NCBI GenBank assembly: GCA_951812955.1
Contig: OX638340.1
Location: forward strand, 2,560,001 to 2,624,000
Length of the DNA: 64,000 nucleotides
Direction: 5' to 3'
Source of the DNA: an uncultured Gemmatimonadota bacterium
Lineage (GTDB): Bacteria > JAAXHH01
Shown: piece after piece, positions 2,062 through 46,691 of the stretch
Layout of the letters: every line of letters begins with the position of its first letter
Position numbering within the stretch: the stretch's first letter is position 1
Notes under the pieces: generated by a model
What the model saw: the letters and a program-made list of their open reading frames with translations, nothing else
What the model was told of the DNA's origin: nothing
Database searches by the model: none
Program-made: the position numbers and the translations under genes

Positions 2062-2178
2062 GGGTCAGGGCGTTCGATCAGGTCGTTCGGGTCAGGGCGT
2101 TCGATCAGGTCGTTCGGGTCAGGGCGTTCGATCAGGGCGTGCGGGCGTCGTTCAGGGCGTTCGTTCAGGCCGTTCGGG
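2062..2178. repeat. tandem array: 27-nt unit GGGTCAGGGCGTTCGATCAGGTCGTTC (x3, then degenerate), made of 13-14-nt TCAGGNCGTTCGR sub-units
   Basis: Direct reading. TCAGG starts at 2065, 2078, 2092, 2105, 2119, 2132, 2152 and 2165. The first two 27-mers (2062-2088, 2089-2115) are identical. The last sub-unit is the cysE stop codon plus last codons. Confidence 0.9.
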
Positions 2179-3160
2179 CGTCGTGCTTTACCACGTCCAG
2201 CTTCGGGTTTCCGATGGTAACCTTGGAATGGGGCGGCACCGGTTCCGTCAGCCAGACGTTGGCACCGATCACGGAATCGTGTCCTATGGTCGTTCCGCCA
2301 CCCAGGATCGTCGCACCCGAATAAATGACCACGTCGTCTTCAATGGTGGGGTGGCGCTTGCCGCCCTTAACGAGACGTCCGCCCTCATCCTTCCTGAAAC
2401 TCAGCGCGCCCAGCGTTACGCCCTGGTATAACTTGACGTTGGCGCCGATCAGCGCGGTCTCCCCGATGACAACGCCCGTGCCGTGGTCGATGAAGAAGCG
2501 GGTGCCGATGGTCGCGCCGGGGTGGATGTCGATACCGGTGCGGCTGTGGGCGTGTTCGGACATGATCCGCGGGATGAGCGGCGTATTCCTCAGATAAAGT
2601 TCATGGGCGAGCCGGTATGTGGCGATGGCTGCCATGCACGGGTAGCTGAGTATGATCTCGTCATGACTTTTGGCCGCGGGATCCCCGTCGTAGGCCGCTT
2701 CCACGTCGCCCATGAGCAGCTTTCGGATCCCGGGAATCGTCTCCAGGAGTTCGAGGGTGATCCCGTCGGCGATTTCCTGGCAGGCCGCCGGATCCTCCTC
2801 CCGGCACGGGGCGTCGTGCATCAGGCTTCGGGCGATTTCCTCCCGCAGCCTGATATAGATGGCGTCCACCAGCCCGTCGACGAAAAAGGCCACGTTCTTC
2901 GTCATGAGCGGTTCGTTCCCGAAATACCCCGGGAAACAAAGGACCAGCAGGTCCCTCAGGATGCCGTAAATCCGTTCCCGCGAAGGCAGGTTATTTCCAT
3001 CTTTGCGGTTCAGGCCACCGACCGAGTCGTAGGATCGTACGATCTGGGATGCCAGCGCGCCGAGCTGGCTGCGCGTCTCCGACATGGTGAGATTGCAGAT
3101 CGGCACCACCTTCTCACCCGAAGTCTCATCGCGCCTGGAACGTTTCATGATGCTCCGCAT
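2165..3160 (-). CDS. cysE: serine O-acetyltransferase (long EpsC-type form)
   Basis: 331 aa. Hexapeptide-repeat core GIDIHPGATIGTRFFIDHGTGVVIGETALIGANVKLYQGVTLG...IEDDVVIYSGATILGG preceded by an SAT N-terminal helical domain (YDGDPAAKSHDEIILSYPCMAAIATYRLAHEL). Confidence 0.85.
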   Translation of the reverse strand: MRSIMKRSRRDETSGEKVVPICNLTMSETRSQLGALASQIVRSYDSVGGLNRKDGNNLPSRERIYGILRDLLVLCFPGYFGNEPLMTKNVAFFVDGLVDAIYIRLREEIARSLMHDAPCREEDPAACQEIADGITLELLETIPGIRKLLMGDVEAAYDGDPAAKSHDEIILSYPCMAAIATYRLAHELYLRNTPLIPRIMSEHAHSRTGIDIHPGATIGTRFFIDHGTGVVIGETALIGANVKLYQGVTLGALSFRKDEGGRLVKGGKRHPTIEDDVVIYSGATILGGGTTIGHDSVIGANVWLTEPVPPHSKVTIGNPKLDVVKHDARTA

Positions 3161-5373: not shown

Positions 5374-7674
5374 TTGAACCAGGTCACGGGATGGCGCGTA
5401 CCACTCTTGGCTTCGGTCCTTCTGATGGCCGCGTTCGGCGCCCTCGCGTCGACGCCGGTAATCTGGAAACAGGCCGGACACGGGGACTTTCTCAGAGGAG
5501 AAACCCGCGGCGTTTCCATAACCGGAAAGGGCCGCCTGACCCTGTCACCGGTCCTGGATCCCGTTTTCGAGAGCGACGAACCGCTGATATGGAGTATCGC
5601 GACCGATTCCAGCGGTAATATCTACGCGGGTACGGGAAATGACGGCAGGCTGTACCGTGTGGATTCCTCGGGCCAGACCGAAGTGTTTTTCGACGCGGAA
5701 GAGCTTGAAATCCGCAGTGTCGCGATTGATGGCGACGACAGGATCTACGCAGCCACCTTCCCCGACGGCCGGATCTACCGGATCGACCCGGACGGGACCC
5801 ATACAGTGTTTTTCGATCCAGCGCGCGATGGCGGCTCGGACGACGGGAATGGCGGCTCGGACGACGGGAATGGCGGCTCGGACGACGGGAATGGCGGCTC
5901 GGACGACGGGACGGGCTACATCTGGTCGCTGGCGCTGGACGGGGAGGGCGGGCTTTACGCGGGAACGGGTGATCAGGGAAGGATATATCGTATCGACGAG
6001 CATGGCGACGCACACCTGCTGGCCGAGCTGGAGGAGGCCCATGTCATGGCCCTGGCCGTGGATGGATCGGGCCGACTGATCGCCGGCACCGAGCCGGGCG
6101 GAAGAGTCTACCGCATGGAATGGACCACGCCCGACGGCCCCCTTTCCCTTTCGGTCCTCCACGATTCTCCCTACGGCGAAATCAACGCCCTTCAGGTTGA
6201 CGCGGAGGGCGCCGTGTTCGCCTGCGCGCTGAGTGGACCGCGCCGGGGCGGCCGGGGCGGGGGAGCGATGTCTCCGCCATCCCGGAGCACTCCCGACGAG
6301 CCTGGCGGCGAATCCGCACGCAACACGGTCGAAGTGACGGCATCGGCGGATGGCGCGGACCGGCCGACAGTCCGCAGTTTCGCCGCGGGGGGCAGTGTGG
6401 TCTTACGGATAGATCCGGATGGACGGGTGGAAGAATGGTGGCGATCCCAGGCGGACGTATGCCTGTCTCTGGCGGTTCGAGGAGAAAAAGAACTGCTCAT
6501 TGGCACCGGGCAGCGCGGCCGGCTGTACAGCGTCCGGGAACGGGGCCGGGGCACGCTGCTGAACGAATTGCGGGATTCGCAGATCACGGCGCTGATGCCT
6601 GTCGCAACGGACGGGGTTTTGGTGGCGACGAGTAATCGCGGCAACCTGTACCGTCTGCTTTCCCGGCCCGTGCGCGAGGGCGAATACGAATCCGATGTCC
6701 GGGATACCCGGGGCATCGCGCGGTGGGGCCGTATACGATGGGAAAACGAGCAGCCCGCGGGGACGACGGTCCGCCTGTATGCGCGGTCGGGCAATACGGA
6801 TGCTCCCGACCAGACCTGGAGCGAATGGACCGGTCCCTACACCGACCCGGAAGGAGAAGCCCTGGCATGCCCGCCCGCCCGCTATCTGCAGTGGAAGGCG
6901 GTGCTGAACACGCGGAACGAGCAAACCCCCTCGGTCTCTTCCGTTTCGGCCTCGTACCTGACGCGAAACAATCCGCCCAGGGTGCACTCGGTCACGGTAT
7001 ACGAGCCGGGCGTCCAATTGCGGGACGCCGCGCCAGGTTCAGGCTTACAGACCGATCTTCCCCCGGGCATCGCAGCGCAGGTCGGTGGCCGTGGCAACGG
7101 CCGCGGCCAGAACGCATCGGCCGGCTCCCCCACCTACCGGAAGGGCATGCGGGCCATCGCGGTCCAGGCGAGCGATCCTGACGGGGACGGACTGTCCTTC
7201 GAAATCTATTTCCGGGGCGCGGCTGAAGAAACCTGGAAACTCCTGGAGTCGGAACGGCGCACCCCTTCCTATTCCTGGGATTCCGAGACTTTCCCGGATG
7301 GAGAATACGTCATACGCGTCGTGGTCAGCGACGCGTCGTCGAACCCGCCTGACCAGGCACTGGAGTCGGATCACCTCACCGAACCTTTTCTGGTGGACAA
7401 TACCGGTCCGCTGGTAACCCGGATCAACATATCAGACGGACTGTTGTCCTTTCTTGTCCAGGATAACGCCAGTCCCCTTTTTCGCGTGGAATACGCCATA
7501 GACGGGCGCGATTGGCGGGTGGTTCACCCCGTGGACGGCGTTACGGATTCGAAGACGGAGTCATTCGAGATCACCCTGGACGGACTGGAACCCGGCGAAC
7601 ACACCCTCGCCGTTCGCGCCAGGGACACATCAAATAACACGGGTACGGGGAAACGGGTCGTCAGGATCCCCTGA
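5374..7674 (+). CDS. secreted repeat protein (beta-propeller-like G..GR[IL]YR[IV]D repeats plus C-terminal Ig/Fn3-like region), function unknown
   Basis: 766 aa with a TTG start 10 nt after the S55 gene stop. Signal peptide LLASVLLMAAFGALA. Recurring GNDGRLYRVD / PDGRIYRID / GDQGRIYRID / PGGRVYRME / GQRGRLYSV / SNRGNLYRL motifs. No recognised catalytic motif. Confidence 0.6.
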   Translation: MNQVTGWRVPLLASVLLMAAFGALASTPVIWKQAGHGDFLRGETRGVSITGKGRLTLSPVLDPVFESDEPLIWSIATDSSGNIYAGTGNDGRLYRVDSSGQTEVFFDAEELEIRSVAIDGDDRIYAATFPDGRIYRIDPDGTHTVFFDPARDGGSDDGNGGSDDGNGGSDDGNGGSDDGTGYIWSLALDGEGGLYAGTGDQGRIYRIDEHGDAHLLAELEEAHVMALAVDGSGRLIAGTEPGGRVYRMEWTTPDGPLSLSVLHDSPYGEINALQVDAEGAVFACALSGPRRGGRGGGAMSPPSRSTPDEPGGESARNTVEVTASADGADRPTVRSFAAGGSVVLRIDPDGRVEEWWRSQADVCLSLAVRGEKELLIGTGQRGRLYSVRERGRGTLLNELRDSQITALMPVATDGVLVATSNRGNLYRLLSRPVREGEYESDVRDTRGIARWGRIRWENEQPAGTTVRLYARSGNTDAPDQTWSEWTGPYTDPEGEALACPPARYLQWKAVLNTRNEQTPSVSSVSASYLTRNNPPRVHSVTVYEPGVQLRDAAPGSGLQTDLPPGIAAQVGGRGNGRGQNASAGSPTYRKGMRAIAVQASDPDGDGLSFEIYFRGAAEETWKLLESERRTPSYSWDSETFPDGEYVIRVVVSDASSNPPDQALESDHLTEPFLVDNTGPLVTRINISDGLLSFLVQDNASPLFRVEYAIDGRDWRVVHPVDGVTDSKTESFEITLDGLEPGEHTLAVRARDTSNNTGTGKRVVRIP
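5830..5913. repeat. in-frame 21-nt tandem repeat x4 (GGCGGCTCGGACGACGGGAAT) encoding GGSDDGN x4
   Basis: Read directly. Copies at 5830-5850, 5851-5871, 5872-5892 and 5893-5913; the first three are identical and the last ends ...GGGACG. Confidence 0.95.
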
Positions 7675-16339: not shown

Positions 16340-16609
16340 ATGGCACGGGATACGCAGGGCAAATGGCAGTACATGAGGGAAGCCGGAGAGCTTGCCGTAA
16401 TCGGCCTGACCCTGGTTTTCGCCACGGCGATAGGATACTTTCTGGGTCACCAAGTCGAACTGGCCTGGCCTGAGTGGAATCCCTGGGGCGGCGTCGTCGG
16501 CGCCATGCTCGGCGTCGTGGCCGGGTTCCTGGAAATGGCGAGGACGCTGAAACGTCTGAACAGAAAGCTGGAAGCGGCGGAGCGGGAGAGCAATGGCACA
16601 AAGCACTGA
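16340..16609 (+). CDS. AtpZ/AtpI-family small membrane protein (F0F1 operon gene 1)
   Basis: 89 aa with two TM segments (ELAVIGLTLVFATAIGYFLG; GGVVGAMLGVVAGFL). Position immediately upstream of the atp genes. Confidence 0.6.
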   Translation: MARDTQGKWQYMREAGELAVIGLTLVFATAIGYFLGHQVELAWPEWNPWGGVVGAMLGVVAGFLEMARTLKRLNRKLEAAERESNGTKH

Positions 16610-17126
16610 GCGTGACGGCGAAACATTGATCGGCGGCATGTCGACGGCCGGAACGGCGACGGACGCGGAATCTCCGTCCGGAAACAACGATGAACCGTTG
16701 CGGCGGTTCCTGCCCCGAGTCTACCGGATAAGCGCCGTGCTGACCGTGGTCGGCACCATCGCGTCGCGCGTAGCGGGCGCGGACCTGCTTGCCGTCAATT
16801 TCTTCACCGGATCGTTTATCGGACTGTTGCTGCTGTATGTCACGGCCTGGCTGGTCCGCCGTTACATGACGCCCGTCGCGCACATCAAGCGGAACCGCAA
16901 CCGGTTGTTCCTGCTTCTGATGGCCAAGCTGCCGCTGCTGGGAATCGTGTTGTATTTCGTGACTTCGGGGGACTGGTTCCACCCGATCGGGTTTTTGATG
17001 GGTGTGTCCTTGACGCCATTCACGCTGACCCTGTGCGGATTGATCCTGCTCACGAGGCAGGGCTCGGGGGATGGGCGGCCCGACTGGACCGCCGTACTGG
17101 ACAAGACGAAGCGGTCGTACCGGTAA
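16593..17126 (+). CDS. membrane protein, possible ATP synthase subunit I (AtpI-like)
   Basis: 177 aa with 4 predicted TM segments. Overlaps the previous gene by 17 nt and ends 12 nt before atpB. Called from position and hydrophobicity only. Confidence 0.45.
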   Translation: MAQSTERDGETLIGGMSTAGTATDAESPSGNNDEPLRRFLPRVYRISAVLTVVGTIASRVAGADLLAVNFFTGSFIGLLLLYVTAWLVRRYMTPVAHIKRNRNRLFLLLMAKLPLLGIVLYFVTSGDWFHPIGFLMGVSLTPFTLTLCGLILLTRQGSGDGRPDWTAVLDKTKRSYR

Positions 17127-17138
17127 GGAGGTTTTCCT

Positions 17139-17951
17139 TTGACTACTCCGTGGTCGAGTGTCCTCTCTCTGAAGATGGCGTCGGAGGGAGGAAGCGGTGA
17201 AGCGCACTACTCGATACTACATGGGTTGTTTCTATTGCTGGGCCCGCTGGCCGAATGGATTCCCAGGCCGGTCAGGCAGCCGGATCTCCTGCTGAACACC
17301 CTGCTCGTCTTCGTAATCGTCCTCGTTCTCGTAACCATCGCGGTAAGAACGCTCAAGCGTATTCCCGAAGGCTCGATCCAGGCCCTTTTCGAAATGGCCG
17401 TCGAAGGGCTGACCGATTTCTTCCTCAATATCGTAGGGGAGCGCGGCAGGAAGTACATTCCCTTTTTCGCCTCCTTTTTCATCTACATCTGGTTCATGAA
17501 CATGCTGGGCGTCATACCCGGCATGCAGTCGCCCACCGCCGATCTGAACACCACGCTCGGATTCGCCCTCATCTCCGTCGTCGCGGCCCATCTCATCGGC
17601 CTGCGCGAGATAGGGATCAAGGCCTATCTCTGGCATTTCTGGGGTGAGCCCAGGTGGATGGGCGTGCTCATGTGCCCGCTCCATATAATCGGCGAGTTCG
17701 CCAAGGTCGTCTCGCTTTCGATACGGCTTTTCGGGAATGTGTTCGGGGAGGAAATGATCCTCCTCGTGCTGGCCGGCCTGTCCCCGGTGCTGCTTTTAGG
17801 CGCCCTGGAAGTGCCCTTCGTGCCGCTGCAGGTCCCGATGTTGATGTTCGCGGTGTTTTCCGGGACGATTCAGGCGATGATCTTCTCGGTGCTCAGCGCC
17901 GTGTACGTAGCCCAGTTCCTGGATCATGGTCACGGGGAAGAAGACCACTGA
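17139..17951 (+). CDS. atpB: F0F1 ATP synthase subunit a
   Basis: 270 aa. TTG start 6 nt after a strong SD (AAGGAGG). Conserved LSIRLFGNVFGEEMIL (essential Arg) and PLHIIGEFAKVVS. Confidence 0.9.
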   Translation: MTTPWSSVLSLKMASEGGSGEAHYSILHGLFLLLGPLAEWIPRPVRQPDLLLNTLLVFVIVLVLVTIAVRTLKRIPEGSIQALFEMAVEGLTDFFLNIVGERGRKYIPFFASFFIYIWFMNMLGVIPGMQSPTADLNTTLGFALISVVAAHLIGLREIGIKAYLWHFWGEPRWMGVLMCPLHIIGEFAKVVSLSIRLFGNVFGEEMILLVLAGLSPVLLLGALEVPFVPLQVPMLMFAVFSGTIQAMIFSVLSAVYVAQFLDHGHGEEDH

Positions 17952-17976
17952 CGTGCTGTAGGTGCGTATGCTGTGT

Positions 17977-18018
17977 AACGAGTTCAGAATGTTTCAAAAC
18001 GAGTTCAGAATGTTTCAA
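17977..18018. repeat. AT-rich 21-nt perfect tandem duplication AACGAGTTCAGAATGTTTCAA x2 in the atpB-atpE spacer
   Basis: Read directly. Copies at 17977-17997 and 17998-18018. Confidence 0.95.
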
Positions 18019-18073
18019 TATGACGTTATGATGCTGCTGTAATTCGTTCTCCATTCCGAAAGGAGTTTGCTTC

Positions 18074-18346
18074 ATGCTGTACTATATGGGTTTGGGACTA
18101 GGCGTGGCCCTTGCTGTTTCCGTCGCCGCCATCGGCGCCGGCGTTGGACAGGGTATCGCCACCGGTCTGGCCTGCCAGGGCATTTCCCGTCAGCCCGAAG
18201 CCGCCGGCCGCATTCAGCTGGTGATGATCATCGGCCTGGCGTTCATGGAATCGCTGGCTATCTACGGCCTGCTGGTTTTCTTCATGCTCCAGGGCCGGTT
18301 GCCTTCATTCGAGCAGGTCATGCAACTGACTCAGGTCGGACAGTAG
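18074..18346 (+). CDS. atpE: F0F1 ATP synthase subunit c
   Basis: 90 aa. SD AAAGGAG upstream. [11 protein letters not shown]...ISRQPEA loop, ion-binding helix [17 protein letters not shown]. Confidence 0.92.
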
Positions 18347-18421
18347 GATGCAAACGGACTGCATGGCTTGCGGCGCGCGTCCATCCGGCGCGTGTTGCCG
18401 GCGTTCGAAGGAGCATAGCGC

Positions 18422-18931
18422 GTGTTAGATATCTTGCACGATCTTGGCATTGACCTGAGCACCCTGATCATCCAGATGATCGGGTTCGCCATCCTGTTCT
18501 TCGTCCTGAAGAAGTACGTTTTCGGCATGATCGCCCAGGCCATCGAGGACAGGAAACGGGATATCCGCGACCGCATGGCCGGACTGGACGCGGACCGGGC
18601 GGAACTGGACCGTCTCCACGATGAAGCCAGGCGGCGGCTCGAGGAAATAGAGGCCGAGGCCCGTGAGAAGGTGCAGGCCGCGGTCGACCAGGCCAACGCG
18701 GAGCGCGGCCGGATCCTCGAGCTGACCCAGCAGGACACGGAACGCGAACTGGAGAAGGCGCGCAACACCATCCGGCGCGAGAAGGAACACGCGGTGGCCG
18801 AACTGCGCGCGCAGGTGGGCGACCTGGCGGTGGAGATCGCGGGCAAAGTCCTGAACAGCACACTGGACGCGGCGGAACATCGTAAGGTCGTGGACGAATT
18901 CATCGCACAGATACCCTCTGCGAAGGAATAG
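18422..18931 (+). CDS. atpF: F0F1 ATP synthase subunit b
   Basis: 169 aa, GTG start after GAAGGAG. Single N-terminal TM (LIIQMIGFAILFFVLKKYVF) followed by a long charged helix. Confidence 0.85.
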   Translation: MLDILHDLGIDLSTLIIQMIGFAILFFVLKKYVFGMIAQAIEDRKRDIRDRMAGLDADRAELDRLHDEARRRLEEIEAEAREKVQAAVDQANAERGRILELTQQDTERELEKARNTIRREKEHAVAELRAQVGDLAVEIAGKVLNSTLDAAEHRKVVDEFIAQIPSAKE

Positions 18932-18940
18932 CGGGGAACC

Positions 18941-19480
18941 ATGGCCAGTATGAAAGACATCGCACACAGGTATGCCGGGGCGTGGCTGGAAGCCGCGGCG
19001 GAAAGGGAATTGCTGGAACCGGTCCGCGGCGAAATCGCGGCGTTCGAGCAGCTGTGCCGGGATTCCGAACCCTTTGTGGAATTCATCACGGACAAGGTCA
19101 TACCGGCTGACGTAAAGCAGCGCATTCTGGGCGAATTGTTCGAAGGCAAAGTCCAGGACATCACCCTCAATTTCCTATACCTGCTGGCTACCAGGCGGCG
19201 GGCACGCCTCATGCCGGAGATCCTGGAATCGTGTCGGGAGATCCTGGATGAGTGGGACGGAATCGTAAACGCGGACGTCTCGAGCGCGGTATCGCTTTCA
19301 GAGACGCAGGAGAGCGGCCTGAGGTCGAGCCTTGAAGCGCTTACGGGCAAGCGGATACGGATGAAGACTGGCGTGAACCCGGAACTGATCGGCGGTTTCG
19401 TGGTCCGCGTGGGCGACCAGGTCTTTGACAGCAGCCTGGCCACCCAGCTCCAGCGGGTTCGCCAGTCGCTTGCTTCATAA
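18941..19480 (+). CDS. atpH: F0F1 ATP synthase subunit delta
   Basis: 179 aa, OSCP-like. C-terminal NPELIGGFVVRVGDQVFDSSLATQL. Confidence 0.85.
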   Translation: MASMKDIAHRYAGAWLEAAAERELLEPVRGEIAAFEQLCRDSEPFVEFITDKVIPADVKQRILGELFEGKVQDITLNFLYLLATRRRARLMPEILESCREILDEWDGIVNADVSSAVSLSETQESGLRSSLEALTGKRIRMKTGVNPELIGGFVVRVGDQVFDSSLATQLQRVRQSLAS

Positions 19481-19489
19481 TGAGCATCG

Positions 19490-21034
19490 ATGGAGAAGAC
19501 AATGGCGTTTGATGAAATAGCAATTCGTGCGGACGAGGTCTCCGAACTCCTGAAGCAGCAGGTCCTGGACTTCAAGAGAGAGGTCGACATCTACGAAACG
19601 GGTACCGTGCTCCAGGTGGGCGACGGGATCGCCCGGGTGCAGGGCCTTTCCAACGTGATGGCGAACGAGCTCGTCGAGTTTCCCAATGACGTGGTGGGCA
19701 TGGTGCTCAACCTGGAAGAAGACAACGTCGGATGCATTCTCTTCGGGGACGACCAGTTGATCAAGGAAGGCGATCAGGTCAAACGGACGCAGCGGATCGT
19801 CGAGTGCGCCGTGGGCGACGGCATGCTGGGCCGCGTGGTGGACTCCCTGGGCCGGCCTATCGACGGCAAGGGGTCCGTCATCGGAACGGAGTCGCGCCCG
19901 ATTGAGACGAAGGCGCCCGGCGTGGTGCAGCGACAGCCCGTAAATGAACCCATGTATACCGGTCTCAAGGTGATCGACAGCATGTTCCCCATCGGAAGGG
20001 GACAGCGCGAGCTGATCATCGGCGACCGGCAGACCGGTAAGACGGCCGTGGCCCTGGACGCGATCATCAACCAGAAGGGCCAGGACGTGGCCTGCATCTA
20101 CGTGGCCATCGGACAGAAGGGTTCGACGATCGCCAAGACGGTCGCGATTTTGGAAGAACACGGCGCCATGGAATACACCACGGTGGTCGTGGCCGCGGCC
20201 AGCGCGCCGGCGCCCATGCAGTTCCTGGCCCCTTACGGCGGGGCGACTATGGGTGAATTCTACCGCGACAATGGCAAGCACGCCCTGGTCATCTACGACG
20301 ACCTGACCAAGCACGCGGTGGCCTACCGTCAGTTGTCGCTGAACCTGCGGCGTCCGCCCGGCCGCGAGGCCTACCCCGGGGACGTGTTCTACCTGCATTC
20401 CCGGCTCCTGGAACGTGCAGCCAAGATGAGCGACGAATACGGCGCCGGCTCGCTGACCGCGCTGCCTGTCATCGAAACCCAGTTCGGCGACGTGTCTACG
20501 TACATCCCGACCAACGTGATATCCATCACCGACGGCCAGATCTACCTGGAGTCCAACCTGTTCTTCGCGGGACAGCGGCCGGCCGTCAACGTGGGCCTGT
20601 CGGTATCCCGCGTGGGTGGCGCCGCGCAGATCAAGGCGATGAAGTCGCGCCAGGTGGCCGGTCTGCTCAGAACGTCGCTCGCCCGCTACCGGGAGCTGGA
20701 AGCCTTTGCCCGGTTCGGCACTTCGGGCCTGGACCAGACCACGCAGCGGGAACTTCACTTGGGCGAAAGGCTGGTCGAACTGATCAAGCAGCCGCAGTAC
20801 CGGCCCATGGCGGTCGAAGAGCAGATCATTTCGCTGTATGTGGGCGTCAACGGCATGTTGAACGACCTGTCCGTGGACCAGGTGCAGCCCTTCGTGGCGG
20901 CCTTTCTCCAACACATGGAGACACATCATTCGGACGTGGGCCGTGAAATCAGGGAAACCGAACAGTTGTCCGAGGATGCGGAACAGCATATCCGGGACGC
21001 GGCCAAGGAATTCAGCAAGACGTTCAACGGTTAG
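19490..21034 (+). CDS. atpA: F0F1 ATP synthase subunit alpha
   Basis: 514 aa. Walker [12 protein letters not shown]; [22 protein letters not shown]; ITDGQIYLE. Confidence 0.97.
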
Positions 21035-21044
21035 AAAGGGTACC

Positions 21045-23334
<2,290 letters not shown>

Positions 23335-23337
23335 ATC

Positions 23338-23739
23338 ATGGCGGGCGAATTTCCTTTAGTCATCGTTACGCCTTCCTGCATGGCCTATGAAGGCGAAGTG
23401 CGCAACGTGCTGGCGCCGGGCACCGATGGATACTTCGAGGTGCTGATCGGCCATGTGCCCATGCTCACCTCACTGCGGCCCGGAATCCTCTCCATCCGGA
23501 ACGAAGACGGCCGTACCAGGTACGCCGTGTCCGGCGGATTCGTCGAAGTGCTGCGGTCCCAGGTTACCATCCTGGCCGAAACCATCGAAGCGGAAGGCGA
23601 CATCGACGTGGAGCGTGCGCAACGGGCCGAGAAACGGGCGCGCCAGCGCCTGGAATCGGATGAAGACGGCGTCGACGTCGAACGGGCCATGTCCTCGCTG
23701 GACCGGGCGCTCAACCGCATCAAGGCGAGCCAGCAGTAG
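23338..23739 (+). CDS. atpC: F0F1 ATP synthase subunit epsilon
   Basis: 133 aa. LVIVTP...EGEV..V.APGTDGYFEVLIGHVPMLTSLRPG; C-terminal helical hairpin. Confidence 0.9.
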   Translation: MAGEFPLVIVTPSCMAYEGEVRNVLAPGTDGYFEVLIGHVPMLTSLRPGILSIRNEDGRTRYAVSGGFVEVLRSQVTILAETIEAEGDIDVERAQRAEKRARQRLESDEDGVDVERAMSSLDRALNRIKASQQ

Positions 23740-23857
23740 GACTCTCTGCGGCGAGTCCCTCTGCCGCGAGCTCCTATTCGGCGTGTCCCACTGTCGTGAG
23801 TCCCACTGCGGCGAGTCCCTCTACTGCGGGTTCCTCTGTCTCGAGTCCCTTCGCTGC
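23740..23857. repeat. degenerate ~15-nt tandem array (consensus GAGTCCCNCTGCGGC, about 8 units) directly after the atpC stop
   Basis: Units read at 23740, 23753, 23768, 23783, 23798, 23813, 23830 and 23843. Direct repeats only; no inverted symmetry noticed. Confidence 0.85.
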
Positions 23858-23874
23858 ACCAGGCTTAACTTCTC

Positions 23875-24870: not shown

Positions 24871-24909
24871 TTTCTACTACGGCCGACGATCGCGAATGAC
24901 TGTATGAAT

Positions 24910-25712: not shown

Positions 25713-25725
25713 GGATCGTCTGCGG

Positions 25726-26520
25726 TCATGTCCTGGTCACGTCCTGGTAGAATCCCAGCTCGAAGAGGCGGTCGAGCCATCGCTGCCGTTTTGGCCTGCC
25801 ATCGGGATTGGCAAGCCAGTACGGATCGACCAGGGGATCGCCGGGTCGGTTGTACTTGGCTGTGGCCTTGCCGTTGTTCGCCCCCTGCTCGCGCGTGGTC
25901 TCGACTTCCTCCGGCGTCCTCGGATTGTTGTAGTACACGCAAGTGCACATGCGCCGGTCGCTGGATCCTCCGTAACTCGCATGCCACAACCGGAGGTCGA
26001 ATCCCACTACGTCGCCCGGTTCCGATACGCAGACATGTGACGGCACTTCCGCGACGGACAGGCCCAGACCGGGCATCACCTTTCTCAGTTCGCCATGGTA
26101 AGGATTTTGGTGCGAACCCGGGATGACGCGCAGCGCGCCGGTCTCCGGTCCCACGGGTTGGAGGTAGAAGGCGAACTTGATGCCGTACTGGTGGATACTG
26201 TGTGTATCCGGATGCCATCCCGTGTTGCCGACGTAACGGTTGGCGTCGGTCGCGATCCCCAGCGCATCTTCGCCGTAGAGCTGTTCGGCGACACCACATA
26301 ACCGGGGATCTTCCATGAGACTCGCGAAGAAGGGCGTGGATTTCCCCATCATCGTGACCCAGTGCCGGACCGAGCCGTCGAAAGGCAGGTGACGGTAAGC
26401 CATTTCCAGCCCGTGGTCGAACTCCCCGTTGATCTGGTCCAGTTCGTCCGGCGTGAAGACCTGGCGCAAGACGACAAAACCAAATGTCTTATAGTGTTGA
26501 TATTGTTGTTCGGTCAACAT
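25726..26520 (-). CDS. phytanoyl-CoA dioxygenase (PhyH) family Fe(II)/2-oxoglutarate oxygenase
   Basis: 264 aa. N-terminal LTEQQYQHYKTFGFVVLRQVFTPDELDQI; HxD motif in GWHPDTH; distal LRLWHASYG. Confidence 0.7.
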   Translation of the reverse strand: MLTEQQYQHYKTFGFVVLRQVFTPDELDQINGEFDHGLEMAYRHLPFDGSVRHWVTMMGKSTPFFASLMEDPRLCGVAEQLYGEDALGIATDANRYVGNTGWHPDTHSIHQYGIKFAFYLQPVGPETGALRVIPGSHQNPYHGELRKVMPGLGLSVAEVPSHVCVSEPGDVVGFDLRLWHASYGGSSDRRMCTCVYYNNPRTPEEVETTREQGANNGKATAKYNRPGDPLVDPYWLANPDGRPKRQRWLDRLFELGFYQDVTRT

Positions 26521-27286: not shown

Positions 27287-29746
27287 TCAGGCCCGGGCCT
27301 TCAGGCGTTTTCTGATGTGCATCGCACCCGCTGAAATCAACCCGGCGAGGATCAGTGCGCTGGCGATCCGGCTTATCAGGAGGCCCGTGGCGAAGGAAGC
27401 GGGGGCGAAAGTCATCACCACGTCATGACGGCCTTCGGGTACGGCCACGGAGCGAAGGACGTAGTTGGTCTTGTGTATTTCCGCCGGCTGGCCGTCAATC
27501 TCGGCGCTCCATCCTGCCGGATAATAGATCTCGCTGAGCACCAGCAAACAAGATGAGGCCGCATCCACTGCCATCTCGATACGGTGCGGTGAGTGCAGGG
27601 TGATCTCCACGGACGAGTCGCCCGCCGGACCGAGCCGTTCCTGGAGAGGTTCTTCCACGATTGCGTATTTGCCGGGATTGAACCCCGGGTCGCTCAGCGC
27701 TTCGAAGATGGCGTCCTTCCCGGCAATGACGCGCACACTGTCCACCAGGAAGGCCCGCGGCAGCGCGTCGTCGTTCCGATACAGGTATCCACCGTCGGTT
27801 TCGGCCACGGGTGCGAGCGCGGCTTCAGGGAGCGGCTGTCGAGACACCAGGTAACGGGTATTCAGCATGTTCAGAACCGGAAAGGAACTGAGTCCCACCT
27901 GGTCCATGAGTTCCTGGTAGATGCCCAACTTGGCGGCGTGGTAGCCGCCAATACTGGATATCCCGAAGTATCCGTATTCATTCGAAGAGAACTCGGAGAG
28001 CGGCAGGATGCGGTACAGGCTTGTGTCGTCTTCCAGGGCTTTCACAATTTCGTTGTCTCGGGCGGTGTAATAGGCTTCGATCCGCGCGGGATCATCTTGG
28101 GGGTTCACGATCCGCGAGGCCACGAGCGATAGATCGATGGAGACGAGTATGCATACGCCCGCGGCAAACAGTGACGGGCTCATCTTTCGGGTGGCGAAAA
28201 GCAGCGCCGCAGCCGCGCAGAGGAACAATGCCATGGTCCACAGATCGCCCATGAACAGGTCGAATCGCATGGCGTTGAGCCTGGCATGGTAGTCCACGTT
28301 GTCCAGGAGGGCCGCGCGCGAACCATGGGCCGCATCCGCCTGCGAATAGACGCCCGTCATGAAGGACTGGAAGGAGGACTCGAATACGGTCAGTACCAGG
28401 ACCAGCAGGAGGACTCCGCCGGCTACGCAGCACAGTTTTTTCGCGAAGCTCCCCAGGCTGTCCCGGCCGGCACGTATCCGTTCGATCACCGCGTGCACGC
28501 CGTATCCCGCCAGCAGGGCTGCCGCGAACTGCAGGATCACCAGGATCATGACCGGCGCGCGGAACTTGCCGAAGAAGGGGACGAAGTGGAGCATGACGTA
28601 GGACAGGGGAGGCAGGTGCCGTCCGAAGGAGACCAGAAGGGCCAGCACGGCCGCCAGGACGAGAAACAGGGTCATGCGCGAACTTCGCAGCAAGAAGCCC
28701 GCCAGGGCCAGGACAACGACGACGACGCCCAGGTAGTTCGGGAAATCCGTGAAGGGCATTTCTCCCCAGTAGAAGAGACCGCCGAACCCGGCGAAGGAAG
28801 GGATGATGAAGGTCAGTACTTCGATGGGAGGGAACGACCAGCTCGTGGCGAAGGGGACGTTGACGCCGCTACCGCCGACTGAGAGGCCCCGAGCGGAATA
28901 CTGCGCGTATTCCTGCATGGGAAAGACCAGCACCGCCGCGACGGCGACGGCCAGGACGATACCGCCCACAAAGAGACCGGATTTTCGCAGTATCTCGCGT
29001 GCAGGAGTCCTGTCCCTCCATTCATTGATTACGGCGTATGCGGCGTACAGGCCGATCAGCATGGCCGTGTAGAAGGCGATCTGGGGATGAAAGGAACACA
29101 ACTGCGAGCCGAACGCGCCTCCGAGCAATACCATGTCGAACACCCCGCCGCGATCAAATACGCGGTAGGCTGCCAGGAAGACGAGGGGGACATGCATGAA
29201 GCAGATGAACCGGTTCGCGTGTTCCGTGGCCATCATGTGGGTGGAAAACACGAAGGCCGCCGCCGCGACGAAAGACGCGGGCCTGGAGAGCGACAAGGTT
29301 CGCGCCAGAAGAAACATGGAAACCGCGCCGAGGAGCAGGTGGAAGAAGAAACGGCCGTGCAGCGCGCTGACGAGCCGGTCCGGCAGGACGGCATTGACCA
29401 GGGCTTCGTAGCTGTATTGTAGATGGTGGTACGTGCCGCTGGCCTGGAAGGGCATGCCGCCGAAGATGTGGGGGTACCAGAGGGGCGTTTCGCCGGATCC
29501 GCTTTTAAAGTCCTGCGCGAAGCGGTCGAAGGGAATGGCCTGGCCAATGAAATCGGGCCTGATGTCCATCTTCCCGTCGATGATATAGCCGCGGTACACG
29601 AATACGGCCAGCACCGCGATGATCAGGCAGAACAGGGCGTCCTGGACCAACGGATGCAGGCTTCGGTCCGCGCGCTCCCGACGGCTATCGTCCCGTCCGC
29701 GGATTCGGCGCTGTTCAGATCGTGGTGGGTTTCGCTGCTTCGCCAT
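27287..29746 (-). CDS. YfhO-family polytopic membrane protein (putative GT-C-type glycosyltransferase)
   Basis: 819 aa. About 13 TM segments in the first ~520 aa, then a soluble C-terminal domain and a final TM. N-terminal PLWYPHIFGGMPFQASG resembles the YfhO family. Called from architecture and this motif only. Confidence 0.7.
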   Translation of the reverse strand: MAKQRNPPRSEQRRIRGRDDSRRERADRSLHPLVQDALFCLIIAVLAVFVYRGYIIDGKMDIRPDFIGQAIPFDRFAQDFKSGSGETPLWYPHIFGGMPFQASGTYHHLQYSYEALVNAVLPDRLVSALHGRFFFHLLLGAVSMFLLARTLSLSRPASFVAAAAFVFSTHMMATEHANRFICFMHVPLVFLAAYRVFDRGGVFDMVLLGGAFGSQLCSFHPQIAFYTAMLIGLYAAYAVINEWRDRTPAREILRKSGLFVGGIVLAVAVAAVLVFPMQEYAQYSARGLSVGGSGVNVPFATSWSFPPIEVLTFIIPSFAGFGGLFYWGEMPFTDFPNYLGVVVVVLALAGFLLRSSRMTLFLVLAAVLALLVSFGRHLPPLSYVMLHFVPFFGKFRAPVMILVILQFAAALLAGYGVHAVIERIRAGRDSLGSFAKKLCCVAGGVLLLVLVLTVFESSFQSFMTGVYSQADAAHGSRAALLDNVDYHARLNAMRFDLFMGDLWTMALFLCAAAALLFATRKMSPSLFAAGVCILVSIDLSLVASRIVNPQDDPARIEAYYTARDNEIVKALEDDTSLYRILPLSEFSSNEYGYFGISSIGGYHAAKLGIYQELMDQVGLSSFPVLNMLNTRYLVSRQPLPEAALAPVAETDGGYLYRNDDALPRAFLVDSVRVIAGKDAIFEALSDPGFNPGKYAIVEEPLQERLGPAGDSSVEITLHSPHRIEMAVDAASSCLLVLSEIYYPAGWSAEIDGQPAEIHKTNYVLRSVAVPEGRHDVVMTFAPASFATGLLISRIASALILAGLISAGAMHIRKRLKARA

Positions 29747-29825
29747 GAATATCCTTTAGCGGACTGTTTCTGCGCTTCGCAATGAATACCCTATAACGGC
29801 CTGTTGCTGCGATATGAATGGCGGG
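29745..29825. repeat. degenerate tandem copies of the yfhO start region (ATGAAT-initiated units at 29745, 29782, 29814 on the plus strand)
   Basis: ATGAATATCCTTTAGCGGACTGTTTCTGCGCTTCGCA / ATGAATACCCTATAACGGCCTGTTGCTGCGAT / ATGAATGGCGGG. The first unit abuts the yfhO start codon (CAT at 29744-29746). Confidence 0.7.
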
Positions 29826-29878
29826 AACATCCGATTAAATCAATCGATTAAAGCAAACGGTAAATTCTGCTGGTTAAA

Positions 29879-30802
29879 TCAACGAGTATTCGAGGTGATC
29901 GGGGTAGCGAAGCCTTCCCAAATCCCTCGATGGAGCGCGCCCAGGTGGCCCCACCTGCGACGGATGACCAAGATAGCCGCCGACCGAAGATAACGATACA
30001 GAAAAAGGTAAGGCAGGAACGCGAACAGAAACTGCGGAAGCGGCACGTGTTTTCTCGCAAACAGAATCCTGCTGCGTATCATGTGACGCATATAGAATGG
30101 ACTGTTGAAACCGGCCGTCCGTGACCCCTTGTGGTGGACAACGGCCTTTGGCTCCAAAAGCAATCTATATCCGGCTTCCCGCACCTTCATTCCCCAGTCG
30201 AAGTCGTCGAAATAGCAAAAATAATCTTCGTCCATCAGTCCGACCTTCTCCAGGACAGCGCGCTTGACGAGGAGTGCAGTTCCCGTGATGTACGGCATCT
30301 CGGTCGAGGAATCGAACTGCCCCCTGTCCTCTTCCCCGTGACCCAGAAGAAACCCCTGCGCCAGCCACGGGATGGTGCGTGTACCTGCCGAGTCGAGCAC
30401 GCGTTCCTCTCCATACTTGTAGATCTTCGGTCCGGCCATGCCTATATCGCTGGAGCGTTCCGCCGCTCGAACAAGGTTGGCCAATACGTCTGGCTCCACG
30501 ACGGTGTCGTTGTTCAGCAGGAACACGTAATCGGCGTCTTTTGAAAGGGCATGGCGCATGCCCTGGTTGCTACCACGGACGAATCCCCTGTTTTCGGCGT
30601 TACGAATCAGCGTCAAAGGGAGGTTTTCACGCCCCCACCGCTCGATGGCATCAGGCGAGCCGTCTGTCGATCCATTGTCCACAACAATGACCGAAAAGGA
30701 CGGGTAGTCTATACGCGCCAGTGATTCGAGGCACTCCAGCGTATCCGCTTCCCGGTTCCAGTTGAGTATGACGATGGCGACGTGGGGAAGTGATAGACTC
30801 AT
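29879..30802 (-). CDS. GT2-family glycosyltransferase
   Basis: 307 aa. VAIVILNWNREADTLECLESL, VIVVDNGSTDGS, LLNNDTVV, MDEDYFCYFDDFDW. Confidence 0.8.
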   Translation of the reverse strand: MSLSLPHVAIVILNWNREADTLECLESLARIDYPSFSVIVVDNGSTDGSPDAIERWGRENLPLTLIRNAENRGFVRGSNQGMRHALSKDADYVFLLNNDTVVEPDVLANLVRAAERSSDIGMAGPKIYKYGEERVLDSAGTRTIPWLAQGFLLGHGEEDRGQFDSSTEMPYITGTALLVKRAVLEKVGLMDEDYFCYFDDFDWGMKVREAGYRLLLEPKAVVHHKGSRTAGFNSPFYMRHMIRSRILFARKHVPLPQFLFAFLPYLFLYRYLRSAAILVIRRRWGHLGALHRGIWEGFATPITSNTR

Positions 30803-33645: not shown

Positions 33646-33697
33646 CCTTAAGCCTCCGGATGTGAGGGATAGGGACGCCGCGGAGCGGGATCCCATC

Positions 33698-33729
33698 GCT
33701 AGAAATCCACTTGGCTAGAAATCCACCGC
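33698..33729. repeat. 16-nt tandem duplication GCTAGAAATCCAC[TTG/CGC] x2; the second copy is the 3' end plus stop codon of the OM-barrel gene
   Basis: Copies at 33698-33713 and 33714-33729. CTA at 33715-33717 is the TAG of ORF 33715-34572. Confidence 0.9.
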
Positions 33730-37474: not shown

Positions 37475-38406
37475 ACGCGCTTTCGGATCAGCGCCCGGGC
37501 CGTGATGGAGATTTTCTTCCATGGGGACAGGCCGATGCGCTGGCTATACACGTCGTACTGGCGACGGGGGATTTCTTCAAGGCACGCCCGGTAGATGCCG
37601 ATCATGGCCGCCAGACACGCCCTGCTTGAGAACTGAACCTTCGGAAGGAGCGGCAGCGCTGCGTCGTAGTAGCTTCTGGCGCGTTCCACCTGGAATTCCA
37701 TCAGTCGCCGGAACGAATCGTCTAAAAGTCCGTTCCGCAGACGTTCCTCCGGGTACCCGAAGGCGTCAAGGTCCTCCTGCGGCAGGTAGATACGGCCCAT
37801 CCCCGCGTCCTCCCTCAGGTCGCGCAGTATATTTGTCAGCTGAAAGGCGATGCCACAGGACTCGGCGTGTTTTTTGGCTTCCGCGCCATTGAATCCGAAG
37901 ATGTGTATGCACACCAGTCCGACGGCGGAAGCCACGCGGTAGCAGTACTGGTAAAGTTCTTCGAAGGTGGCGTAACGCGTCACCGTAAGGTCCATTTGCG
38001 CGCCGTCGATAATGGCGTCGAAGTACGCTCTCGGGATGTCGTATCTCCCCACCGTGTCCCTGAATGCCGGCAACAGCCCGCGGACGTCGGGCGGTGTTTC
38101 GCCATAGGCGTCGGCCGGTGGTCCGTCATATGCGTCGGGCGGTGGTCCGTCATAGGCGCGGTCCAGGGACTCGCGGCAGGCGTTCAACCGGTTTTCCTTG
38201 TCCGCCTCCCCGGCCTCCTCGTCGACGATGTCGTCGCAGTAGCGCATGAAGGCGTACACGGCGCACATGGCCCGTCGCCGTTCAGCCGGCAGGACGATAA
38301 AGGAATAGTAGAAGTTCTTAGCCCTCGATTTCGCGATTTCGCGGCAGAAATCATAGGAGCGCTTCAACGATTCCGGATCGGCAGATTGTTTTTTCACAGG
38401 GTTCAT
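37471..38406 (-). CDS. hpnD: presqualene diphosphate synthase
   Basis: 311 aa. SRAKNFYYSFIVLPAERRRAMCAVYAFMRYCDDIVDE (first Asp-rich motif), TNILRDLREDAGMGRIYLP (second motif). Confidence 0.82.
   Translation of the reverse strand: MNPVKKQSADPESLKRSYDFCREIAKSRAKNFYYSFIVLPAERRRAMCAVYAFMRYCDDIVDEEAGEADKENRLNACRESLDRAYDGPPPDAYDGPPADAYGETPPDVRGLLPAFRDTVGRYDIPRAYFDAIIDGAQMDLTVTRYATFEELYQYCYRVASAVGLVCIHIFGFNGAEAKKHAESCGIAFQLTNILRDLREDAGMGRIYLPQEDLDAFGYPEERLRNGLLDDSFRRLMEFQVERARSYYDAALPLLPKVQFSSRACLAAMIGIYRACLEEIPRRQYDVYSQRIGLSPWKKISITARALIRKRV
38106..38153. repeat. in-frame 24-nt tandem duplication inside hpnD encoding YDGPPPDA / YDGPPADA
   Basis: Plus-strand copies AGGCGTCGGCCGGTGGTCCGTCAT (38106-38129) and ATGCGTCGGGCGGTGGTCCGTCAT (38130-38153). 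Confidence 0.9.
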
Positions 38407-38475
38407 GACAACGGCGTTCCATCGTTACGTACAACGAGCACGGTTCGACGAGTACGGTTCGACGCGCACGACCCA

Positions 38476-44683: not shown

Positions 44684-44771
44684 GGTCAGCCTGGTATGAT
44701 GATCTGCCTGGAGTGATAATCGGCTTGGTTCATTGATTAGCCTGAAATCCTGGTCAGCCTGGTATGATGAT
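44684..44771. repeat. 68-nt-period duplication of the 3' end (last 5 codons plus stop) of the transglycosylase gene
   Basis: Identical 20-mers GGTCAGCCTGGTATGATGAT at 44684-44703 and 44752-44771. The second contains the TGA (TCA 44754-44756) and codes ...IIIPG. Sequences after each copy are recognisably related but diverged. Confidence 0.85.
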
Positions 44772-46496
44772 TCGTTGGCCGATCCTCAACCGGTTGGCCT
44801 GTACATCGGGGTTCGCCCGCATAAGGGCCGCTACGGTAACCTTGAAGACCCGCGCGATACGTGATAGCGTATCCCCCGAGCGGATGTCGTAGGTCACCGG
44901 ACTGCCGACCGTTCCCCTTCCGCCGATCCCGTTCCCAGTAAGGCGAAGCACCTGGCCGGGGCGGATGATGTCTCCCCGCAACCCGTTCGACTGCTTTAGC
45001 GCGGTAACGGATGTCCCGTAATACCGGGCGATGCGGGTCAGTGTGTCGCCGCGCCGCACGGTATGCGAAGTAGCGTTCTTCGGTGTACCGTACGAAGGCC
45101 CCTGGCCTACCCATGTCTGGTTATTGTAGCTGCGCCCGGGCACGCGGAGCATCTGGCCAATGCGGATCAGGCTGCCCCGTATCCGGTTCATGCTCCGGAT
45201 TCTGCTGACCGACGTCCGGAATCTGCGGGCGATATGGCCGAGGGTATCGCCTCGCCGCACGCGGTACCTGCTTACCTCGGGAGGGGGTCTGAAATTCGAC
45301 TCCGGCAGCTCGTCGAGACTGCCGAGCAGGGTCGAGCCTGCGCCGAGGGGCACGCGCAGCGCGTAACCGGTGGGCGGCGTCACGCCGTAACGAATGTCGG
45401 TATTCAGGGCCTTGAGATCGTCCTGCGGCATGTCCAGCATTTCGGCGACGTGCTGCAGCGTGACCGACTTGTCGAGAAGCACCTCTTCGAAGAGGTGGGG
45501 ATGATGGGTCTCCGGCCATTCGACGCCGTATTTCTCGGCGTTCTCGATGATATGCACCACCGCGAGGAATTTGGGTATGTAGTTCCGGGTCTCCCTGGGC
45601 AGCCGCATTTTCCAGTAGTCCCGGTTCCCCGTCCGGTTGATCTCGCGGAGTACGCGATACTCGCCGCAGTTGTATGCCGCGAGGGCGAGAAACCAGTCGT
45701 CGAACATGCCGTACAGGTCCTCCAGGTAGGCGAGTGCGGCCGGTGTGGCCTTGTGGGGGTCAAAGCGGTCGTCTACCCAACCGGATCGGCGGAGTCCGTA
45801 CCGCTTGCCGGTATCGAAGATGAATTGCCACATGCCCGCCGCGGCCGCCCATGAGTACGCCCTGGGCTTGAAGCCGCTTTCGACGATCGGAAGCCACTGA
45901 AGCTCTCCAGGCATTCCGCGGGCGGCGAGCTCCTCACGGATCATGGGTGTGTATCGCCCGGACCGCTGGTACGCGGCCTTGAGTATGTCCAGGCTCCTGC
46001 CCTTGAGAAACTGATTGATTTGCAGGGTGACGCGGCGGTTGAGTTCTCTGGGAATCGAACCCCTGACTTCGGCGGCCGCGCGGTGTCTGTCCTGGATGCG
46101 GTCCACCAGCAGGCCGAGTTGCCTGAGCAGGTCGGCCTGCGCGGGAGTCGCGGCGTGTTTCTGGTCGTCGCTCAGGAGGATGAGCAGCCCGAGCACTTCG
46201 TCGACCGCGTCGCGCGCGGACGTGGTATCGGAACGCTCCAGCGCCGCGAGCGCCGCGTCATAGCGCAGCCTGGCATCGGCGAGAAGACGATCCGGATCCT
46301 GTGTCACCAGGGAGTCGGCCAGGGTGACGTGATCGAGGGTAAGATCCTGACCCGGCATTTGCTCCACCGCGACGGCCGTTCCGGTGGTGTCCGCCGTCTC
46401 GGGAGAGGCCGTGGCGCGCGAGCCCGGTTCAAGGGACCGGTGTCCGGCGCAGCCGGCGAGGATAACAAGGCCTATGAGCGGGAGGTATCTTATCAT
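44754..46496 (-). CDS. lytic murein transglycosylase (MltD-like) with three C-terminal LysM domains
   Basis: 580 aa. Lipoprotein-like N-terminus LIGLVILAGCAG. SLT core ELQWLPIVESGFKPRAYSWAAAAGMWQF. LysM repeats YRVRRGDTLGHIARRF, HTVRRGDTLTRIARYY, YDIRSGDTLSRIARVF. Confidence 0.85.
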   Translation of the reverse strand: MIRYLPLIGLVILAGCAGHRSLEPGSRATASPETADTTGTAVAVEQMPGQDLTLDHVTLADSLVTQDPDRLLADARLRYDAALAALERSDTTSARDAVDEVLGLLILLSDDQKHAATPAQADLLRQLGLLVDRIQDRHRAAAEVRGSIPRELNRRVTLQINQFLKGRSLDILKAAYQRSGRYTPMIREELAARGMPGELQWLPIVESGFKPRAYSWAAAAGMWQFIFDTGKRYGLRRSGWVDDRFDPHKATPAALAYLEDLYGMFDDWFLALAAYNCGEYRVLREINRTGNRDYWKMRLPRETRNYIPKFLAVVHIIENAEKYGVEWPETHHPHLFEEVLLDKSVTLQHVAEMLDMPQDDLKALNTDIRYGVTPPTGYALRVPLGAGSTLLGSLDELPESNFRPPPEVSRYRVRRGDTLGHIARRFRTSVSRIRSMNRIRGSLIRIGQMLRVPGRSYNNQTWVGQGPSYGTPKNATSHTVRRGDTLTRIARYYGTSVTALKQSNGLRGDIIRPGQVLRLTGNGIGGRGTVGSPVTYDIRSGDTLSRIARVFKVTVAALMRANPDVQANRLRIGQRIIIPG

Positions 46497-46634: not shown

Positions 46635-46691
46635 GTCGGCCATTCGTCGGGCAGTCGGCCATTCGTTAGGCAGTCGGCCATTGGTCGGGCA
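46635..46691. repeat. 19-nt tandem repeat x3 (GTCGGCCATTCGTCGGGCA / ...GTTAGGCA / ...TTGGTCGGGCA) downstream of queG
   Basis: Copies at 46635-46653, 46654-46672 and 46673-46691. A related sequence GAGTCAGCCATTCGTCA (about 46724-46740) forms the queG stop region. Confidence 0.9.

Follow-up and report, generated by a model that had tools for sequence, protein, structure and literature searches.

A hypervariable tandem repeat, apparently derived from a gene end, in the convergent spacer between trxB and a serine O-acetyltransferase gene of an uncultured Gemmatimonadota bacterium

Bacterial variable-number tandem repeats (VNTRs), such as the typing loci of Yersinia pestis (PMC3689786), are head-to-tail repeats that vary in copy number and make-up between strains and are absent from the orthologous site in relatives; their periods are in-frame within genes and of any length between them. 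These features are shared by the array studied here, which lies between convergent trxB and serine O-acetyltransferase (‘cysE’) genes in a 64,000-nucleotide stretch of DNA (the window). It differs from such VNTRs in that its unit is traceable, base for base, to the last codons and stop of the adjacent gene, that an array appears here to have created the whole convergent spacer, and that the host is an uncultured Gemmatimonadota lineage.

Tandem repeats of the Borgs, elements of Methanoperedens, are pervasive, recent, independently arising and fast evolving, with flanking partial repeats; all genic unit lengths are divisible by three, most intergenic ones are not, and there are arrays that start in the end of an open reading frame (ORF) (PMC9879509). 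Arrays in the window are like them in having genic periods that are multiples of three and intergenic periods that are free. Borg repeats, however, are perfect and A-rich and occur at a much higher density, only on the element and not on the chromosome of the host, whereas those of the window are imperfect (74–100% matches), GC-rich, located on a bacterial chromosome and about 2.7 times as dense as in unrelated genomes.

MIRUs, which Supply and colleagues reportedly described in 1997, are said to be a dispersed family with units of 46–101 bp at about 40 intercistronic operon sites, carrying small coupled ORFs. They resemble our locus in being variable-number repeats at gene boundaries, with units whose stop and start codons overlap those of the flanking genes. 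The ‘cysE’/trxB array, by contrast, has units of 13–14 nt that are out of frame, lies between convergent rather than co-oriented operon genes, and was found at one locus, not dispersed over many, when the whole window was scanned with its 13-mer. Its units also abut directly, unlike CRISPR repeats, which alternate with unique spacers.

Two more distant cases bear comparison. The TAACTGA direct repeats of marine Beggiatoaceae (PMC4679880) are a single heptamer at 169 loci with a proposed regulatory role; these are likewise short intergenic direct repeats with stop-codon triplets, whereas the window arrays each have their own, locally derived unit. The mitogenome of Orseolia oryzae (PMC4520695) has tandem duplications at gene boundaries that form new spacers and vary between lineages. 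The likeness is to a gene-dense genome in which slippage duplications persist mainly at gene boundaries, although the genetic system, an organelle, is a different one.

Anatomy of the array

The trxB gene (1111–2055, + strand; stop TAG at 2053–2055) encodes a 314-residue thioredoxin-disulfide reductase, which contains the CATC redox motif and passes TIGR01292 in a profile search (396 bits against a cut-off of 343). Opposite it lies the serine O-acetyltransferase gene (2165–3148, − strand), whose product is 100% identical to a 327-residue protein of public assemblies; an alternative upstream ATG at 3160 would yield 331 residues. This product passes the NCBIfam EpsC cut-off (NF041874; 166.6 bits against 150) and falls short of the TIGR01172 cut-off for cysE. 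The names given to the pair in an initial annotation of this DNA thus stand for trxB and, for cysE, stand in the sense of an EpsC-type serine O-acetyltransferase and not of TIGR01172; we write ‘cysE’ throughout.

The two genes are convergent, and 109 nt separate them as assembled. The initial annotation had described this spacer as consisting entirely of array, which is true for 100 of the 109 bases (2065–2164), but not for the 9 nt adjoining the trxB stop (2056–2064; GCCGCCGGG, or CCCGGCGGC in the cysE sense), which are a remnant of the ancestral spacer. The array proper comprises seven head-to-tail relic copies of the ‘cysE’ end, each 13, 14 or 20 nt long, each terminated by TGA on the − strand, and each with 0–3 mismatches to the last 13, 14 or 20 nt of ‘cysE’, stop included.

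Read in the cysE sense, the series begins with the source unit, the last 20 nt of ‘cysE’ with its stop (2165–2184, −; ACGACGCCCGAACGGCCTGA), which encodes ...H-D-A-R-T-A-stop within the gene end CAC GAC GCC CGA ACG GCC TGA. It is followed by U1 (2152–2164, −; ACGAACGCCCTGA, 13 nt), U2 (2132–2151, −; ACGACGCCCGCACGCCCTGA, 20 nt, differing from the gene end at 2 positions) and U3 (2119–2131, −; TCGAACGCCCTGA, 13 nt). These three form an older part of the array (2119–2164), in which U2 and U3 together are a 33-nt duplicate of the gene end plus U1. Two 27-nt higher-order units come next, in which CCCGAACGACCTGA (14 nt) and TCGAACGCCCTGA (13 nt) alternate: U4 (2105–2118, −) with U5 (2092–2104, −), and U6 (2078–2091, −) with U7 (2065–2077, −). 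The series ends with CCCGGCGGC and CTA, the trxB stop.

This anatomy agrees closely with what had been noticed at first sight. The TCAGG starts reported at 2065, 2078, 2092, 2105, 2119, 2132, 2152 and 2165 are all exact, and the intervals between them, given as 13–14 nt with one 20-nt gap, measure 13, 14, 13, 14, 13, 20 and 13 nt. The first two copies of the proposed 27-nt higher-order unit are identical (2065–2091 and 2092–2118), and the last sub-unit is indeed the real ‘cysE’ terminus, as 2165–2184 encodes ...D-A-R-T-A-stop (TCA being TGA on the − strand).

TRF detected the array with a period of 27 (2061–2145; 3.1 copies, 96% matches, score 156), of 13 (2065–2176; 8.9 copies, 78% matches, score 115) and of 33 (2119–2184; 2.0 copies, 90% matches, score 111). 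In 40 Markov-simulated windows, the mean number of arrays scoring at least 50 was 0.25 and the top score was 67; array strength at this spacer is far above chance. Allowing up to 2 mismatches, the 13-mer has 8 matches in the array and 11 in the whole window, against 2.9 expected.

Repeats of this kind might instead be inserted members of a dispersed extragenic family (REP/BIME-, MIRU- or Correia-like) of protein-binding or mobile elements. There is a loose likeness between the units of different arrays (CGAACGGCC at the ‘cysE’/trxB spacer and CGAATGGCC at 46635), and ACCAGGCTGA occurs at three intergenic or gene-end sites. Outside the array, however, the 13-mer finds only 3 matches, with 2 mismatches, where about 2.9 are expected for the whole window, and CGAATGGCCGAC is not enriched (17 against 13.6). 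The dispersed stem-loop palindrome of REP/BIME elements is lacking too: the unit is not dispersed in the window and contains no palindrome, and the cysE-sense strand is unfolded (z = +1.09). The units correspond to the conserved coding end beside them, a sequence dictated by the ...ARTA residues of the protein, and each array in the window has a unit of its own, drawn from its own flank. An inserted family is therefore a very improbable source.

Junctions in related species and alleles within the species

We asked which of the repeated sequences is the original. The ...ARTA C-terminus is kept in 18 CysE homologues of similar length, down to 65% identity, and because it is conserved to this depth, the ‘cysE’ end is the original and the repeat units are the copies. 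The last 18 nt of ‘cysE’ (GACGCCCGAACGGCCTGA) are identical in a sister species whose CysE is 91% identical. A CysE scan of the genome collection gave only distant homologues (at most 56% identity among the matches listed).

No array is present at the orthologous trxB/‘cysE’ junction of three related species (82–85% DNA identity; the 82–84.5% identity of the related loci holds over BLAST-aligned parts). Their junctions follow the pattern TGA-CCNGNNGGC-CTA, with a spacer of 9–15 nt. In the sister species, represented by ten contigs, the junction reads GAC GCC CGA ACG GCC TGA CCTGCTGGC CTA, with a 9-nt spacer, and in two further species (CysE 86–87% identical) the spacers are 9 and 15 nt; the relatives’ spacers can be read as TGA-CCTGCTGGC-CTA or TGA-CCGGCCGGC-CTA. 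The window has the ancestral 9-mer (CCCGGCGGC) plus exactly 100 nt of array between this 9-mer and the ‘cysE’ stop. This comparison of sequences shows the array to be derived from the ancestral gene end, recent and species-specific. The relatives bear Gemmatimonadota MAG labels, and closed contigs are 3.7–3.9 Mb long.

Within the species, an array was found at the junction in 14 of 14 contigs (the window and 13 others, 94.7–98.3% identity), so that orthologous spacers are 9–15 nt without an array in relatives and 48–109 nt with one in conspecifics. The conspecific contigs come from different samples and from both short-read (SPAdes-style) and long-read assemblies, including long-read contigs of 2.2–2.5 Mb. 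An 18-mer scan of metagenomes returned 36 loci, of which just two, L098 and L109, were orthologous; the other 34 matched unrelated genes by chance.

Eight alleles were distinguished. The spacer is 109 nt in the window, 95 nt in L136, L137, L138 and L140 (one identical allele), 89 nt in L139, 82 nt in L081, 63 nt in two variants (L141 and L143), 55 nt in L098 and L109, and 48 nt in L142. All are made up of 13–14-nt and sometimes 20-nt units, which mostly end in TGA, with some decayed to CTA, TAA or CGA. Six of the eight allele types terminate in CCCGGCGGC, and the two 63-nt variants in CCCGGCGAA and CCCAGCGAA. Some alleles contain a second copy of the ancestral spacer and trxB stop (CCCGGCGGCCTA), so that the segment duplicated in those lineages must have included both stops. 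U1 and U2 are common to the window, L081 and L098/L109 alleles. Compared with L081, the window has 14 + 13 = 27 extra nt within 2065–2118, a segment that differs in every allele; the two identical 27-mers beside trxB are the youngest and most variable part of the array.

Short tandem repeats are prone to assembly error, and expansion or collapse by an assembler would be an obvious explanation for an array of this kind. Thirteen independent contigs from different samples and assemblers nevertheless place it at exactly the same junction, and the alleles are related yet distinct, with four contigs sharing the identical 95-nt allele. Because arrays occur in all conspecific contigs, across multiple samples and assembly types, and in eight alleles, an artefact, which the initial annotation had named as a possible refutation, is highly unlikely, and the contig comparison identifies the array as a hypervariable tandem repeat (VNTR).

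Even the smallest conspecific array has at least three units (48 nt or more), and none of the 14 contigs has collapsed to 9 nt. It might be a sign that some spacing is selected for, or no more than a result of common descent.

Proposed origin by slippage and tests of function

We propose, with a probability of roughly 0.85, that the array is a VNTR or minisatellite formed by serial slipped-strand (out-of-register) duplication of the ‘cysE’ 3′ end into a 9-nt convergent spacer. The ancestral ARTA end, the array-free relatives and the eight conspecific alleles bear out the suggestion in the initial annotation that the spacer was generated by repeated slippage or duplication of a gene end. Head-to-tail units, polymorphism among conspecifics, an unexpanded state in relatives and microhomology at the borders, as are typical of a VNTR, are all found here.

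We infer slippage, as the mechanism, from the anatomy of the array. At the ancestral junction (...GCC-CGA-ACG-GCC-TGA CCCGGCGGC CTA...), the tetranucleotide CCCG is directly repeated around a stretch of exactly 14 nt (CCCGAACGGCCTGA|CCCG), the two copies standing 14 nt apart as G-CCCG-AACGGCCTGA-CCCG-GCGGC. Such a pair would favour out-of-register realignment in replication and so predicts a 14-nt primary unit. Microhomology is thus present around the primary unit, and the distal border is TGA|CCCGGCGGC.

The order of events would then be as follows. Misalignment at CCCG would have duplicated the last 14 nt of ‘cysE’, stop included, a duplication that would be tolerated because the stop codon came with it and the ORF was left intact. 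From two copies, slippage or unequal exchange could add 13- and 14-nt units; later events would have given a duplication of 33 nt, made up of the first relic and the 20 nt that end the gene, as well as the 27-nt higher-order units. The most upstream copy, which closes the ORF, would remain under selection, and the downstream copies would be non-coding relics, drifting and turning over. Beyond making two overlapping 3′ untranslated regions longer, the array most likely serves no function.

A contrasting view is that slippage supplied the array and selection retained it as a 3′ element, either a rut site, C-rich and unstructured, at which Rho would load onto the ‘cysE’ transcript, or a spacer between convergent genes whose ancestral 9-nt gap would force their transcripts to overlap. 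No intrinsic terminator (GC-rich hairpin with U tract) was found on either strand in 2000–2200, which leaves both genes without one, and at least 48 nt is kept in 14 of 14 conspecific contigs. Rfam gave no match at gathering score in the window; in 1950–2300 it returned only a chance-level miRNA model (E = 0.23). The cysE-sense RNA of the 109-nt spacer has 47 C against 27 G and is unstructured (MFE −21.7 kcal/mol, fold z = +1.09); the 100-nt array has 42 C against 23 G, which on composition alone is what is expected of a Rho loading site, and the C–G excess of the cysE strand lies at the 99.4th percentile of 78-nt windows.

High C–G windows are, however, common on antisense strands across the window, and the other post-stop arrays of the window show no consistent C>G skew (5 positive, 5 negative). 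Three related species manage without an array, and among strains its length and unit sequence are free to vary. The trxB-sense RNA, moreover, is G-rich and strongly folded (z = −4.5), through G–U pairs between repeats, so the same DNA cannot serve both genes alike. As relatives are array-free, alleles vary freely and the C>G skew is inconsistent, we consider a functional role of this kind unlikely and a neutral array most likely. We also considered a G-quadruplex on the trxB-sense strand, where there are G3 tracts; with loops of 18–20 nt, these do not form the canonical motif.

The ladder of TGA-containing copies downstream of ‘cysE’, to which the initial annotation drew attention, is real, and might be read as a set of back-up stops selected against read-through or frameshifting at the gene end. 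Its seven extra TGAs alternate between frame 0 and frame +1 (unit lengths 13, 20, 13, 14, 13, 14 and 13). A single additional in-frame stop would suffice for this purpose, though, and relatives have no ladder in spacers of just 9–15 nt. Among conspecifics, TGAs have become CTA, TAA or CGA in other alleles, and TGA is in any case simply part of the duplicated unit. Selection for back-up stops is the least probable of the explanations considered, and a neutral by-product of slippage remains our preferred reading.

Other arrays in the window and their significance

At a TRF score of at least 50, the window contains 16 arrays, against 0.25 in simulations. This corresponds to 2.5 per 10 kb, about 2.7 times the 0.93 per 10 kb found in 80 unrelated loci (856 kb). 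Nine of the 16 lie in or across the intergenic 7.1% of the window (P = 3e-7), with periods of 13/27, 21, 15/45, 37, 16, 14, 17/34, 19 and 21. The seven genic arrays have periods of 21, 33, 18, 24, 24, 24 and 42, all multiples of three (P = 5e-4). The sources of the intergenic arrays are varied: gene ends with their stops at ‘cysE’, at 33690–33726, at 44684–44772 and partly at 46635–46691; a gene start with its ATG at 29729–29811; and plain spacer sequence at 23744–23850, 38434–38470 and 52261–52311.

Comparison with the sister species (20 kb, 80% identity) placed all window-specific insertions of at least 15 nt in arrays or their spacers, with two exceptions (24883–24901 and 29850–29888), and revealed no arrays in the sister species over the compared 20 kb. 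Between conspecifics (7 kb at 98.3% identity; 21 kb at 96.7% and 95.5%), nearly all indels of at least 8 nt are gains or losses of units in arrays, the exception being the distal end of L133, past about 57,000, which no longer aligns properly.

Together, these patterns support a general propensity for tandem duplication that is filtered by selection, and not a mechanism that singles out gene ends or stop codons. This process would act genome-wide, with selection purging out-of-frame or otherwise disruptive events; what survives would be arrays that stay in frame within proteins able to tolerate them and, in the sparse intergenic DNA, which in a compact genome sits at gene boundaries, arrays with any period. 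The association of arrays with gene ends would thus arise because ancestral spacers were very short and disruption of ORFs was selected against. The recurrent gene-boundary pattern seen in the initial annotation is accordingly upheld as to arrays at gene ends, and not as to a process peculiar to them, given the seven genic arrays. Likewise, of the lineage-specific ‘mutational or functional’ process it proposed, the indels between conspecifics support the mutational part and the functional part is unsupported.

Several individual arrays merit description. Inside the gene at 5374–7674 (+), a perfect in-frame 21-nt array (5828–5911) has four units; the 21-mer is present in 4, 3, 3 and 1 copies in four genomes, with three in the conspecifics L081 and L109, whose units differ from those of the window at two positions and are identical within each strain (concerted evolution). 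In related species the site holds one copy only, of dissimilar sequence. Another in-frame array, of 24 nt (47595–47641), lies inside queG (46738–47901, −), where L134 is without 36 nt; QueG homologues of 78–98% identity range from 375 to 438 residues, which suggests a long-lived variable region. Around the ‘cysE’/trxB locus, the called lengths of flanking proteins also vary among the closely related contigs L136–L144 and L081–L093 (a TPR-PpiC protein, 503–544 residues; a Peptidase_S55 protein, 612–684 residues), consistent with further in-gene VNTRs outside the window or at its edge.

Gene ends were copied in more than one way. At the 3′ end of the gene at 44754–46496 (−), 44684–44772 holds five 17-nt units that are copies of this end (ATCATCATACCAGGCTGA). 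Over 20 nt, the distal copy matches the real gene end perfectly in the window and with 1–2 differences, near its inner edge, in L133 and L134. The inner three units are degenerate, and even at 95.5% identity the genomes diverge strongly in them; simple relic decay would predict the opposite. At 33690–33726, a 16-nt duplication of the last three codons and stop (GTGGATTTCTAG twice) lies between the stop and the next ATG. An 11-nt tandem duplication over a stop codon at 25724–25748 scores 43 in TRF and so is outside the 16, although of the gene-end class; in the sister species the two genes overlap (ATGA-type), and the duplication in the window gives a new, earlier stop that uncouples them.

Gene starts are duplicated too, as 29729–29811 demonstrates: a 37-nt tandem duplication there covers the start codon and first codons of a YfhO-family gene (27287–29746, −), is absent from the sister species and has a mutated ATG in the copy. 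The complete F-type ATP synthase operon (16340–23739; atpI-like, a, c, b, delta, alpha, gamma, beta and epsilon), which is syntenic with the sister species and preceded by parA/parB, a peptidase M23 gene and a bactofilin gene, is followed just past the atpC stop by a 107-nt array of seven 15-nt units with a 45-nt higher order (23744–23850). The site is a mere 28-nt spacer in the sister species, and the unit comes from this ancestral spacer and not from the gene end.

Unit number also differs from L133 or L134 at 38085–38158, 38434–38470, 46635–46691, 50027–50068, 52261–52326, 53646–53737 and 55107–55143; at 38441, for instance, L133 is longer by three 14-nt units, and at 46635 the 19-mer is present only once in L134. 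The 10-mer ACCAGGCTGA has three exact sites within 2 kb (44686, 44754 and 46623, −), all at gene ends or intergenic. With at most 1 mismatch it has 11 matches against 3.1 expected, several of them just upstream of start codons; near matches on the + strand lie at 23858 and 61556. The 10-mer could be a short motif with a regulatory role, or a side effect of the duplications.

A broader reading would be that tandem repeats are born pervasively on the bacterial chromosome of this species, perhaps of its genus, in a lineage-specific regime like that of the Borgs, and that selection retains part of the products; an altered replication or repair function could be the cause. We regard this as unlikely. 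Were it true, C-rich post-stop arrays could act as Rho-loading or spacing elements for convergent genes ancestrally 9 nt apart, and in-frame arrays could diversify proteins.

The ‘cysE’/trxB array itself behaves as a slippage-generated VNTR and reveals no genetic element of a new kind. Differences between the compared genomes were seen at a minimum of nine further arrays of the window, and together with this locus those at 5828, 25724, 38085, 38434, 46635, 47595, 52261, 53646 and 55107 are candidate strain-typing markers, which would serve for an uncultured Gemmatimonadota population present in many metagenomes. Short-read assemblies and gene callers are also likely to give conflicting results at array sites, and the lengths of neighbouring proteins already vary between contigs. 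The locus offers a clean, traceable birth of non-coding DNA in a compact bacterial genome, in which a 9-nt junction has become a spacer of 48–109 nt solely through the re-copied last codons and stop of one gene.
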